From a virus: a stretch of 64,000 nucleotides of DNA. Position numbers and translations under genes: made by a program. The DNA lies in the UHGV virus genome UHGV-1343746. One strand, written 5' to 3'. The notes under the pieces were generated by a model. The model ran no database searches and had not been told where the DNA came from. It saw only the letters and a list, made by a program, of their open reading frames with translations. Numbering within the stretch: the first letter of the stretch is position 1; the number at the start of each line of letters is the position of its first letter. This document shows, piece after piece, positions 40,003 to 43,655 of this stretch.

Positions 40003-40028
40003 TGAAAAAAGACGGTGCAGAGACCGTC
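40003..40028 (-). terminator. terminator-like hairpin
   Basis: minus-strand GACGGU...ACCGUC followed by UUUUUUCAGG. Confidence 0.4.
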
Positions 40029-40185: not shown

Positions 40186-40261
40186 TGGAGTATCGGAAGG
40201 GACTCGAACCCTCATAAACCTGTTTTGCAGACAGGCACATAACCATTTCTGACACCGACAC
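40186..40261 (-). tRNA. tRNA-Cys(GCA)
   Basis: manual fold: sense T-loop TTCGAGT, anticodon loop CTGCAAA, 7-bp acceptor stem, CCA encoded. Confidence 0.7.
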
Positions 40262-40267
40262 ATAATT

Positions 40268-40360
40268 TGGAGGAAGATACCAGACTTGAACTGGTACGCC
40301 GATTTCTCGGTTACTGGCAGTTTAGCAAACTGCTCCCTTACCTTTTAGGGTTAATCTTCC
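40268..40360 (-). tRNA. tRNA-Ser(GCU), long variable arm
   Basis: T-loop TTCAAGT; anticodon loop TTGCTAA; ~93 nt with variable-arm hairpin. Confidence 0.7.
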
Positions 40361-40361
40361 A

Positions 40362-41096
40362 TTATTTGTTCAGAGCTTCTTTCATCTCTGGAGTTGCGAT
40401 AGTATCAATCACACCAGTTTTACATGAATCATCAAACCAGCTTGGTAGAACATTCGCAAGGAAACCATTAATATTTGTTTTCAGGTATTCTGCAATCAGT
40501 GCTGCTTCATCTGCAATCATCTGAGTTACTTCATTAGCATATGCAGTAATCTTTGCAATACCCTCATTAATCGCTGTAACGGCCTGTGTAGCGAGTTCAG
40601 AGATTGTATCTAGTCCTTGGTCGATTGCATCTTGCAAATCGCTTAGAACGCTATTTACAGCGTCTATGGAGGTATTAATCAAATCCATCGCTTTATTACC
40701 GTACTCGGTAGCTACGCCCATGATACCGCTAAACGGTGTACATCCAACCTGTTCACCTGCTGCTCCCATAACGTTAGAGTAACCTTTAGCTACTTGCATA
40801 CGTTGTGAAAACTCATCTACAGACTTTTGTCCATACTCAGTGAGTGTACTTGTCGTTGAAGTTGTACTTCCAAGGCTTGTTGTGAAGCTTCCTAATAAGG
40901 CTGTTGTCAGTCCAGCAGCAACTAAAATCTGTTGTGTGGCTGGGTCTGTTACAGAACTAATTGAGTTAACTAATGATTGAGAGGCAGCTATAGTACCACC
41001 AAGAACTGCTGCACCAGTAATAAGAGGGTTTGAAAAACCATTACCAGTTTTAAGGAGATTAAAAATCTCTTTACTTTGTTCTGTCATCTCTTTCAT
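40362..41096 (-). CDS. Ala/Ser/Thr-rich protein with hydrophobic segments, embedded in tRNA cluster
   Basis: track ORF trimmed to ATG at 41096 because the listed N-terminus overlaps tRNA-Phe. Confidence 0.45.
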   Translation of the reverse strand: MKEMTEQSKEIFNLLKTGNGFSNPLITGAAVLGGTIAASQSLVNSISSVTDPATQQILVAAGLTTALLGSFTTSLGSTTSTTSTLTEYGQKSVDEFSQRMQVAKGYSNVMGAAGEQVGCTPFSGIMGVATEYGNKAMDLINTSIDAVNSVLSDLQDAIDQGLDTISELATQAVTAINEGIAKITAYANEVTQMIADEAALIAEYLKTNINGFLANVLPSWFDDSCKTGVIDTIATPEMKEALNK

Positions 41097-41114
41097 TATG
41101 CACCTATAAAGTTG

Positions 41115-41189
41115 GTAGCCCATCGGGATTTGAACCCTGTTCTCATGTTTTTCAGACACGCGCTTTAACCATATAAGCTAATTGAGCTA
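41115..41189 (-). tRNA. tRNA-Phe(GAA)
   Basis: T-loop TTCAAAT; anticodon loop CTGAAAA; acceptor TAGCTCA/TGGGCTA. Confidence 0.65.
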
Positions 41190-41195
41190 TTAAAT

Positions 41196-41272
41196 TGGGG
41201 TGACCTACGGGAATCGAACCCGTATAGACCATGTTCACAGCATGGGTCATTATCCATTTATGATAAGGCCAC
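41196..41272 (-). tRNA. tRNA-His(GUG)
   Basis: T-loop TTCGATT; anticodon loop CTGTGAA; CCA encoded. Confidence 0.7.
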
Positions 41273-41303
41273 ATTTAAGGACTCTCGTAAGAACCCTTAG
41301 AAG

Positions 41304-41379
41304 TGGCAGCAGTATAAGGATTTGAACCTTAATCTTTCAGCTTCAGAGGCTGGAGCATTGCCAGTTATGCTATACTGCT
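41304..41379 (-). tRNA. tRNA-Gln(CUG)
   Basis: T-loop TTCAAAT; anticodon loop CTCTGAA. Confidence 0.65.
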
Positions 41380-41385
41380 AATATT

Positions 41386-41456
41386 TGGTACTCCATATCG
41401 GATTCGAACCGATACATAACACAGATTTTAAATCTGGCCTCTCTGCCAATTGGAGT
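41386..41456 (-). tRNA. atypical tRNA-like gene, candidate anticodon UAA
   Basis: good T-arm and 6/7 acceptor stem, but only ~68 nt without CCA; anticodon region is palindrome CAGATTTTAAATCTG; truncated D-arm. Confidence 0.4.
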
Positions 41457-41466
41457 AATGGAGCAT

Positions 41467-41541
41467 TGGCGGGGGATGATGGAATTGAACCATCTTCTTC
41501 GATTTCAAAGACCGAGGTTTTAACCTTGTAAACTAATCCCC
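41467..41541 (-). tRNA. tRNA-Gln(UUG)
   Basis: T-loop TTCAATT; anticodon loop CTTTGAA; positions 1-72 mismatched. Confidence 0.6.
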
Positions 41542-41550
41542 TATTAAATT

Positions 41551-41627
41551 TGGTGCAGAATAGAGGATTCGAACCCCTAACAAACAACTTCGTAGATTGC
41601 TGTTCTATCCATTTGAACTAATTCTGC
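41551..41627 (-). tRNA. tRNA-Arg(ACG)
   Basis: T-loop TTCGAAT; anticodon loop CTACGAA; perfect acceptor stem. Confidence 0.7.
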
Positions 41628-41628
41628 A

Positions 41629-41871
41629 TTATCCGATAAGGACACCATAAAGTTTTAACTCTTCATTAGTGTCTCTTCTGCTTAAGACTGACTCTCTAAA
41701 ATCTTTAGCAATATTCTTTCGAGATTCCTGTCTAGCTTTCTTCTTATCTCTTCTGAGAAAGCGTCTACGATGGTCTGTACGCCACTTGTAGTAATCTTCT
41801 TCACCATCGTGAGAAGCGCAGCAGCCACAACTTGCAATTTCAACTTTACCATGTCTACCATAAGGCTTCAT
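41629..41871 (-). CDS. small basic Cys-containing protein embedded in tRNA cluster
   Basis: 80 aa, Arg/Lys-rich with CGCC...H cluster. Confidence 0.4.
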   Translation of the reverse strand: MKPYGRHGKVEIASCGCCASHDGEEDYYKWRTDHRRRFLRRDKKKARQESRKNIAKDFRESVLSRRDTNEELKLYGVLIG

Positions 41872-41887
41872 AGGAATCTCCTAAAAT

Positions 41888-41965
41888 TGGTGTTCCAAGA
41901 CGGATTCGAACCGTCACTAATACAAGGTTTGAGCTTGCATCCTCTACCAATTGGGATACTGGAAC
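41888..41965 (-). tRNA. tRNA with anticodon CAA (Leu-type) but short variable arm
   Basis: T-loop TTCGAAT; anticodon loop CTCAAAC; ~75 nt without CCA. Confidence 0.55.
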
Positions 41966-41966
41966 T

Positions 41967-42040
41967 TGGTACTCGCTGAAGGACTTGAACCTTCTTCACC
42001 AACTTGTAAGGATGGGGCTTTACCATATAAACTAAGCGAG
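41967..42040 (-). tRNA. tRNA-Val(UAC)
   Basis: T-loop TTCAAGT; anticodon loop CTTACAA. Confidence 0.6.
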
Positions 42041-42136
42041 CTTTGAAGAGGTCTGAAGCTGTGCCGCTAACTCAACTCCGTGGAATTTGTTACGGTCTTC
42101 AGTTGACTCAAGCGGTCTTTCACTTGACCTCAAAAT

Positions 42137-42212
42137 TGGTGCTCCCACAAGGATTCGAACCCTGATAAGTTGCTTACAAGGCAACCGTAATAGCCAATTA
42201 TACGATAAGAGC
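42137..42212 (-). tRNA. tRNA-Thr(UGU)
   Basis: T-loop TTCGAAT; anticodon stem GTTGC/GCAAC with loop CTTGTAA. Confidence 0.7.
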
Positions 42213-42218
42213 ATTGTT

Positions 42219-42293
42219 TGGAGCATCCAGAGGGAATCGAACCCTCAACCTCAGTTTGGAAGACTGTAATTTTCCCATTTAAACTATGGATGC
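42219..42293 (-). tRNA. tRNA-Gly(UCC)
   Basis: T-loop TTCGATT; anticodon loop CTTCCAA; perfect acceptor stem. Confidence 0.7.
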
Positions 42294-42299
42294 ACTAAT

Positions 42300-42375
42300 T
42301 GGTGGAGAAGCAGGGAATTGAACCCTGTACTTAAGTTTGCAAAACTTATGTTTTAACCATGTAAACTACATCCCC
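42300..42375 (-). tRNA. tRNA-Ala(UGC)
   Basis: T-loop TTCAATT; anticodon loop TTTGCAA; G3-U70 wobble pair present. Confidence 0.7.
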
Positions 42376-42381
42376 ATTGTT

Positions 42382-42457
42382 TGGTACAGGTGGAGTGAAT
42401 TGAACCCATCGTCTTACTGATTAAGAGTCAGCCGCATAACCATTTTGCTACACCTGC
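42382..42457 (-). tRNA. tRNA-Lys(CUU)
   Basis: anticodon loop CTCTTAA; acceptor stem good; T-stem weakly paired. Confidence 0.55.
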
Positions 42458-42464
42458 ATTAATT

Positions 42465-42542
42465 TGGTAGGAGACAAGGGATTCGAACCCTCAAACACCA
42501 ACTTCTAAGGATGGTAGGTTTACCAATTACCGTCAATCTCCC
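42465..42542 (-). tRNA. tRNA with anticodon UAG (Leu-type) but short variable arm
   Basis: T-loop TTCGAAT; anticodon loop CTTAGAA; ~75 nt without CCA. Confidence 0.55.
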
Positions 42543-42797
42543 ATTAAATCTTTGTAGAGAACTGCTAAGACGCCAAAGCAACAATGGTATCAAATGCCTT
42601 AACAATTCTCTAAAAAGACCTATTGGCCTTTGCGTAGTCTTCTTTAATCCGGTGACTAGAACCTTTGGAGAGCTTGATATTATCTCTTCTCCGTGACACC
42701 TACTAGGTGCTTTGTCAGTGCCGTGTACGCCAATACACGAAGAGGAAACCTGAAACACTTGCCCGAACAGCGAGTCTCAGCTTTAAATCTTATTAGG

Positions 42798-42881
42798 CGG
42801 TAGATAAAGGAGTCGAACCCTCACCGTATCTCTACAATGGCAACTGTTTTCAAGACAGTTTGGCTTCCATTAGCCGCTACC
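42798..42881 (-). tRNA. tRNA-Ser(UGA), long variable arm
   Basis: T-loop TTCGACT; anticodon stem ACTGT/ACAGT with loop CTTGAAA; ~84 nt, no CCA encoded. Confidence 0.6.
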
Positions 42882-42898
42882 TACCCCTAATAAGACTT

Positions 42899-42981
42899 TG
42901 GCATGGGACGGAGGATTCGAACCCCTTTGAGTAAGTTTTGGAGGCTTACGCACATGCCTTAGTGTCTTAACATCGTCCCAT
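42899..42981 (-). tRNA. tRNA, long (about 83 nt), anticodon unresolved (CCA/Trp candidate)
   Basis: T-loop TTCGAAT; perfect acceptor match GTCCCAT; internal fold ambiguous. Confidence 0.5.
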
Positions 42982-43146
42982 ACTATAATTCGAAGCTTAC
43001 CCTGTTATCTCAACACTGTCAAGCTTCTTCTCAGATTATTTACATGTTCTGGAAAACATGAGATACAGACCACCTCCTTATGAGATTGACTTTTTCAAGT
43101 CAATGCGGAGACCCATAAAGGTCGTCATAGTAATCTGCTAACTAAC

Positions 43147-43223
43147 TGGCACACCCTACAGGATTCGAACCTGTAACTGACGGTTTAGAAGACCGTTGCT
43201 CTATCCGTTTGAACTAAGGGTGC
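43147..43223 (-). tRNA. tRNA-Arg(UCU)
   Basis: T-loop TTCGAAT; anticodon stem ACGGT/ACCGT with loop CTTCTAA. Confidence 0.7.
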
Positions 43224-43500
43224 ATTAACATTTTAAAGAGCACTCATTGCATTTAAGCCAAGCCCCATAAGGGATGCTCTTTAGAATGTTGCCCACTTTA
43301 TTAATCATACCGTGGGCTAGTACGCCAAATTCTTTAACAGGGAGTTGGAATACCCTGCTGGTGTTTAGCCTATTAAGCTACTGCCAGAAAAACATTATCG
43401 TTTGCATTTATTTTTAAGTTTTTAAAATAGACGCTACGCTAACGAAAACTAAGGTTATCTTAAAGTGGTCACATCTGAATGTCAACAACTTTATGAAATT

Positions 43501-43576
43501 TGGTACTGGTAGGTGGAATCGAACCACCGATATTCCCTTATCAGGGGAGTGTTATAACCTTCTTAACTATACCAGC
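43501..43576 (-). tRNA. tRNA-Ile(GAU)
   Basis: T-loop TTCGATT; anticodon loop CTGATAA. Confidence 0.65.
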
Positions 43577-43578
43577 AT

Positions 43579-43655
43579 TGGAGGTTCAGGTGGGAATCGA
43601 ACCCACATTCATAGGGCTTATGAAACCCTTGCATTACCTTATCTGCGACTGAACC
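43579..43655 (-). tRNA. tRNA-Met(CAU)
   Basis: T-loop TTCGATT; anticodon loop TTCATAA with GGG/CCC stem; perfect acceptor stem. Confidence 0.65.

Follow-up and report, generated by a model that had tools for sequence, protein, structure and literature searches.

The 64-kb viral sequence analysed here (referred to throughout, at its full length, as the window) carries a short tRNA-like element on its minus strand, and the question this raises is whether the element is a non-canonical tRNA, perhaps a suppressor or a tRNA mimic, or an ordinary tRNA gene with misplaced boundaries. A preliminary description gave its extent as 41386–41456, approximately 68 nt without CCA, and regarded it as atypical. 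ARAGORN, run on the 64-kb window, calls a tRNA-Leu(taa) on the minus strand at 41386–41464, and the Rfam tRNA model RF00005 aligns over its full length (model positions 1–71 of 71) at 41389–41464. Both agree with the earlier view that a tRNA-like gene is present on this strand, and the CCA is indeed encoded (41388–41386, corresponding to TGG at 41386–41388 on the plus strand), but they place the 5′ end at 41464, 8 nt past the previous limit of 41456. The complete gene is thus 76 nt plus the encoded CCA, or 79 nt. A canonical cloverleaf found by covariance models, which the preliminary description had set against its own atypical tRNA, is what RF00005 returns, at 46.9 bits (gathering score, 29; whole-window E = 7e-7). 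Neither the ARAGORN run nor the tRNAscan-SE annotation of the same gene in GenBank records bears out the atypical class. The flagged stretch is an ordinary phage tRNA-Leu(UAA) gene that was mis-bounded, and it has been annotated and published already. We are highly confident that it is a functional gene for a canonical cloverleaf tRNA-Leu(UAA), carried by a Felix O1-like phage (Ounavirinae, genus Mooglevirus) of Shigella, Citrobacter and E. coli; the gene product would be expressed, processed, charged by LeuRS and of benefit to the phage.

The acceptor stem is formed by GCUCCAU (positions 1–7, at 41458–41464), which was omitted from the earlier description, and AUGGAGU at 41390–41396; all seven positions are paired, with a G1·U72 wobble, rather than the six of seven previously proposed. 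The segment at 41386–41396 holds this 3′ strand, the discriminator A73 (41389) and the CCA. Single-base connectors U8 and A9 precede the D stem, and G26 follows the D-arm. The D-arm itself (41439–41455) had been thought truncated to about 12 nt, but as drawn by ARAGORN it is a full 17 nt, with a 3-bp stem (CUC/GAG; C13·A22 is unpaired) and an 11-nt loop, CAAUUGGCAGA, that includes A14, A15, G18 and G19. In the anticodon arm (41421–41437, from ARAGORN and the RF00005 alignment) the stem CCAGA/UCUGU has a C27·U43 mismatch at the top and four Watson-Crick pairs, and the loop UUUAAAA contains U33, the anticodon U34 A35 A36 (41430–41428) and A37; the earlier reading of a 7-nt loop with U33 and a UAA (Leu) anticodon was therefore correct. 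The variable region, GUUAUGU (41414–41420), is 7 nt, ends in U48 and lacks a long arm. The T-arm (41397–41413), with a 5-bp AUCGG/CCGAU stem and a UUCGAAU loop, is perfect, as had been stated. The conserved tertiary and loop nucleotides are all present (U8, A14, G18G19, U33, a purine at 37, the T-loop UUCGAAU and a 15–48 pair). The single-sequence minimum free energy fold is a partial cloverleaf (-20.8 kcal/mol, z = -2.1) with the anticodon helix extended through U32–A38 and U33–A37, and is uninformative alone. A permissive Rfam search of 41300–41560 found nothing beyond the tRNA, save one chance sub-threshold match.

The shorter structure can be traced to a sequence repeat. The motif CUCCA occurs twice in the gene, at positions 2–6 and 10–14, and only for this reason can ACUCCAA (positions 9–15) be mispaired with the 3′ acceptor strand; that pairing is the source of the 6/7 stem, the 68-nt length and the truncated D-arm. 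A truncated tRNA or mimic of about 68 nt, with this alternative acceptor and a minimal D-arm, is consistent with the present sequence, in which ACUCCAA does pair at 6 of 7 positions with AUGGAGU, but the pairing stems from the internal repeat, and both the covariance model and ARAGORN take in the 8 nt upstream. The two folds also differ in how they fare among relatives. A pattern scan of IMG/VR (T-loop GGTTCGAATCC, 12–17 nt, loop UUUAAAA, 9 nt, D-loop GGYAGA) yielded 31 loci, in nearly all of which ARAGORN reports a short tRNA-Leu(taa) of 73–79 nt, and an alignment of 24 sequences was prepared, comprising 23 distinct relatives and the window copy. Across these 24, the truncated acceptor helix is paired in 44.6% of cells as against 98.8% for the canonical one, in which 6 of the 7 pairs show compensatory change, and we consider the truncated structure exceedingly improbable.

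The same 24 sequences support the cloverleaf as a whole, which is paired in 98.1% of cells and has compensatory changes, altering both sides, in 17 of its 20 pairs. All 500 shuffles fall short of the covariation score, and only 26–48% of cells pair in slid controls. The D stem is 100% paired, with all 3 pairs covarying, and the T stem is 99.2% paired. U8–A14, at positions left free by the search pattern, is invariant (24/24), and so is A73, which the pattern did not demand either. The Levitt pair 15–48 covaries, being A–U in 21 sequences and G–C in 3 with zero mismatched combinations, and G1·U72 is found in 15 of the 24.

The gene belongs to a well-sampled phage group in which it is already known as one of 26 routinely annotated tRNAs. 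Over the surrounding 2 kb, identity to phages in Mooglevirus and Felixounavirus (hosts Shigella, Citrobacter, E. coli and Salmonella) is 93–98%, and the 79 nt are 100% identical, and annotated as tRNA-Leu, in Shigella phages Sf13 and Sf19, Citrobacter phage Mordin, and Henu11 and Henu12. The number of phage records matching the gene is 262, and most of those listed carry a tRNA-Leu annotation. Shigella phage Silverhawkium has the same gene order as the window, with a feature labelled "tRNA-Leu TAA; predicted by tRNAscan-SE" between tRNA-Gln(TTG) and tRNA-Gln(CTG), and this place in the cluster between two tRNA-Gln genes is shared by the tRNA-Leu(TAA) genes of the Ounavirinae (Sf13, Sf14, Silverhawkium, Mordin, Moogle, Felix O1 and wV8). 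A 2025 paper covers all 26 tRNAs of Sf14, a close relative; there Leu_TAA gets its best score from the Leu isotype model (60.2) and has the same anticodon loop as the host's (PMC12482277). In the Felix O1 genome paper, Leu[TTA] is one of the codons whose translation the phage tRNAs are expected to assist (PMC3185647).

One annotated tRNA-Leu among these relatives, in Salmonella phage FM4b (PP068124.1, 26110–26188; L140, 49–127), is a hybrid in which the first 13 nt correspond to Leu(CAA) and the rest to Leu(UAA). It has a tRNA-Val directly upstream, and its acceptor and D stems are left with mismatches. The hybrid looks as if recombination between the two D-loops, which share CCAATTGG, had deleted the intervening DNA.

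The anticodon region does contain the palindrome noted previously, a 15-nt, odd-centred sequence, CAGATTTTAAATCTG (41422–41436 on the plus strand), which consists of the four Watson-Crick pairs of the anticodon stem together with the loop UUUAAAA. Within that loop U33 and A37 are standard and the UAA anticodon fixes U34 and A36, such that a free choice exists only at U32/A38. E. coli leuZ has the identical loop, which is likewise palindromic (GGGAUUUAAAAUCCC), and the anticodon loop of the S. flexneri host tRNA is also TTTAAAA (PMC12482277, Table 8). In wV8, Shy and FM4b (Felixounavirus) and in Mooglevirus SFPB, position 32 (41432 in the window) is a C rather than the U of the window, giving the loop CUUAAAA and breaking the extended palindrome. 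This is the sole difference between the window and wV8 copies, and most Felixounavirus copies are likewise one base off (98.7% identical), consistent with C32 in place of U32 and otherwise with no substantive difference. Because leuZ shares both the loop and the palindrome, and relatives with C32 break it, the palindrome is a by-product of the UAA anticodon and not a selected feature.

The loop UUUAAAA also contains UUA at positions 33–35, and with the anticodon taken one register over the tRNA would read UAA as an ochre suppressor, as the preliminary description had suggested. The anticodon of a 7-nt loop is at positions 34–36, however, which here are UAA, and the identical loop is carried by E. 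coli leuZ, an ordinary Leu tRNA. Stop codon usage, which had been proposed as a check, gives the same answer. Among the 77 ORFs of a crude, non-overlapping set covering 51 kb of the 64 kb, 53 end in TAA, 17 in TGA and 7 in TAG, so most of these genes would be damaged by an ochre reader; ORFs are also dense under the standard code, with a coding share of approximately 80% of the window. From the loop register and the use of TAA as the main stop codon we reject the ochre suppressor, to which we assign virtually no chance.

Bacterial tRNA-Leu species are class II tRNAs with a long variable arm. The tRNA-Leu(UAA) in the window departs from this, as its variable region GUUAUGU is 7 nt compared with 15 nt in leuZ, and this is the one genuinely unusual feature of the gene, albeit one that is common to many phage tRNA clusters. 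All three tRNA-Leu genes of the phage, CAA (41888–41965), UAG (42465–42542) and UAA (41386–41464), all on the minus strand, are short (78–79 nt) with variable regions of 5–7 nt, whereas class II arms are retained in its tRNA-Ser (90 and 93 nt) and tRNA-Tyr (85 nt) genes. The junction joining acceptor to D stem is irregular in the Leu(UAG) gene, whose Rfam score is only 40 bits.

Short-arm Leu(UAA) genes with a leucine-type D-loop are common in diverse phage tRNA clusters (L003–L048, IMG/VR), and those in other phage clusters (IMG/VR L003–L033 and Lactobacillus phage Bacchae) share the architecture of the window gene, including the GGYAGA D-loop, A73 and the 15–48 pair. The variable loop is 5 nt in 18 of the 24 aligned sequences, and the 7 nt of the window is the longest. 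Bacchae has three tRNA-Leu genes of 74–75 nt beside tRNA-Ser genes of 88 nt. In many of the IMG/VR phage clusters the Leu(CAA) and Leu(UAG) genes still have long arms, in contrast to the window, where all three Leu tRNAs are short, and T5, checked as a possible precedent, has a single tRNA-Leu(UAG) of 85 nt that keeps the long arm. Among GTDB genomes (L049–L136), the chromosomes of Actinomadura and Spirillospora and Phycisphaerae MAGs carry solitary short-arm Leu(UAA) genes, and short-arm copies also lie within tRNA arrays (L062, L099 and L104).

Leu(UAA) loci recovered from IMG/VR by the restricted pattern include 31 with a short arm and 15 with a long arm, and from 185,579 bacterial and archaeal species, with one genome per species, 24 and 64 respectively; these counts are bounded by the pattern (exact T-loop GGTTCGAATCC, loop UUUAAAA, D-loop GGYAGA) and are not a census. 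Among distinct sequences the ratio of short to long arms is 24:13 in viral contigs and 21:57 in genomes (odds ratio 5, p = 2e-4). The short variable region, seen in all three Leu tRNAs of this phage and in Leu(UAA) genes of many unrelated phage clusters, could be no accident but a phage-enriched redesign of the tRNA, from which escape from a host factor or, at least, efficient charging by LeuRS could follow, although we think this quite unlikely. If it were true, the phage tRNA would escape a host factor recognising the class II arm, in parallel with the T5 tRNA-Tyr, which escapes Septu and retron-Eco7, both of which cleave the variable loop; at a minimum, enterobacterial LeuRS would efficiently charge a type-I-like tRNA-Leu in vivo, contrary to the view that the E. 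coli enzyme (EcLeuRS) accepts only type II. The loss of the arm raises the question of a role in defence evasion, for which there is a precedent in kind. We found no papers describing short-arm tRNA-Leu in phages in the literature searched.

The absence of the arm bears directly on charging. Overall, the phage tRNA-Leu(UAA) is only 58% identical to E. coli leuZ, and the two differ in length (79 nt and 87 nt, with a 7-nt variable region and a 15-nt variable arm, respectively), but they share G1·U72, U8, the D-loop pattern NAAUYGGYAGA on a 3-bp stem, the loop UUUAAAA, U48, A73 and CCA. The D-loops (GAAUCGGUAGA in leuZ and CAAUUGGCAGA in the phage) are of the same length and near-identical in pattern. 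A blastn search of 5,426 E. coli genomes with the phage tRNA (E <= 10) gave zero matches, so that a recent host origin or a prophage copy is rejected. Leucine identity in E. coli has been reviewed as A73 together with the hinge and elbow elements A15–U48, G18G19, A20a, G18:U55, G19–C56 and U54:A58, with neither the anticodon nor the long arm taking part (PMC9976931). All the sequence-level elements of that list are present in the phage tRNA, among them the leucine-type D-arm and elbow (3-bp D stem, A15–U48, G18G19 and A20a), and the A36–A37–A38 motif used by TrmL is present too. The conserved identity elements argue for charging by the host LeuRS, as judged from the sequence.

An alternative is that this UAA-anticodon tRNA, having no class II arm, is charged poorly or with another amino acid such as lysine. 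The variable region is just 7 nt, and E. coli LeuRS has been described as charging only type II tRNAs, failing in one study to leucylate a heterologous type I substrate, the S. coelicolor tRNA-Leu(CAA) (PMC6614811); for the Sf14 homologue, the tRNAscan-SE isotype score for Lys (54.2) is second to, and near, the top score of 60.2 for Leu (PMC12482277, Table 2). However, this tRNA has the leucine-type D-arm, A15–U48, A73 and G1·U72, all of them conserved, and the arm is considered dispensable for E. coli LeuRS (PMC9976931). Moreover, the wrong amino acid at approximately 2% of codons would be strongly counter-selected, and yet over 250 genomes retain the gene. Mischarging or poor charging is accordingly very unlikely in our estimation. 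The S. coelicolor tRNA-Leu(CAA) and the human mitochondrial tRNA-Leu(UUR) similarly combine a leucine anticodon with the lack of a long variable arm (PMC6614811), but these type I tRNAs have a dedicated or adapted LeuRS, whereas the enzyme serving the phage is presumed to be enterobacterial; the phage tRNA also differs from them in keeping the E. coli-type D-loop and A73, and in having 7 rather than 5 nt in the variable region. A coliphage tRNA-Leu that lacks the class II arm but has the LeuRS identity elements is a natural test of the need of E. coli LeuRS for the arm in vivo. The literature searched yielded no data on expression, processing or aminoacylation of Ounavirinae tRNAs.

Codon usage is in keeping with a tRNA that serves phage translation. 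The codon TTA is used 21.3 times per 1000 codons in the 77 window ORFs compared with 14.4 in 44 E. coli K-12 CDS, and accounts for 27% of Leu codons versus 13%, whereas the CTG share is 14% versus 47%; in Sf14, TTA is also significantly more used by the phage (PMC12482277), and the Felix O1 paper points the same way (PMC3185647). This codon bias is directly observed, as are the identity, cloverleaf structure and conservation of the gene. The canonical tRNA-Leu(UAA) would be transcribed with its neighbours in the tightly packed minus-strand cluster and excised by host RNase P and 3′ nucleases, needing no CCA addition because the CCA is encoded. Host LeuRS would then charge it with leucine, the likely recognition elements being A73, G1·U72 and the leucine-type D-loop and elbow (U8–A14, A15–U48 and G18G19), and it is predicted to decode UUA, plus UUG by wobble. 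The UUA share of Leu codons in the AT-rich phage genes, approximately twice that of the host, suggests that the phage tRNA supplements or replaces the host leuZ-type tRNA during infection. This would add to the usual picture in which phage tRNAs supply codons, here UUA, that AT-rich phage genes overuse relative to the host.

The same gene could instead bring its main benefit by replacing the host tRNA pool after destruction of the host genome, or by conferring tRNA-nuclease resistance through the short variable region. In the Sf14 study, the favoured view is that late infection depends on the phage tRNA pool (PMC12482277), and a further point in favour is the enrichment of short-arm Leu(UAA) in viral contigs over genomes (24:13 and 21:57, p = 2e-4). 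Against the latter, the anticodon loop is the same as the host's, so there would be no escape from an anticodon nuclease (PMC12482277), and the long arms of the phage's own tRNA-Tyr and tRNA-Ser have been kept. We know of no enterobacterial nuclease that targets the variable arm of tRNA-Leu, which also counts against resistance. We view these other benefits as unlikely to be the main one, and favour the supply of UUA-decoding capacity by the tRNA-Leu(UAA).

The gene lies in a cluster of 26 tRNA genes identified by ARAGORN on the minus strand (40186–45351), with a tRNA-Gln(UUG) gene 2 nt upstream and a tRNA-Gln(CUG) gene 6 nt downstream. Its closest paralogue within the cluster is Leu(CAA), at 68% identity. 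At least 25 of the 26 cluster tRNAs have an encoded CCA, and this, along with the tight spacing, fits polycistronic transcription and cutting by host RNase P and 3′ nucleases. A scan of the cluster for sigma-70 promoters and terminators gave 13 promoter-like sites compared with 13.2 expected, with no excess over shuffled sequence. The strongest candidates are a near-consensus sigma-70-like site, TTGACA-18-TATAGT with a TG, at 45408–45379 (minus strand), immediately 5′ of the first tRNA, and, directly beyond the last tRNA at 40028–40011 (minus strand), a terminator-like GC hairpin with a T-run behind it; both are statistically unsupported, and they may be the bounds of the tRNA transcription unit.

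Two protein-coding genes are associated with the cluster. A 471-aa ORF directly upstream of the first tRNA (45517–46932, minus strand) matches PHROG 850 ('RNA-binding protein') and the Pfam domains DUF2828 and DUF7788 and, given where it lies, may be linked with the tRNAs. The other, within the cluster between tRNA-Asp and tRNA-Tyr (44319–44747, minus strand), encodes an HNH endonuclease (PHROG 23251, E = 6e-68), recalling the tRNA region of T5, where HNH genes are likewise interspersed.
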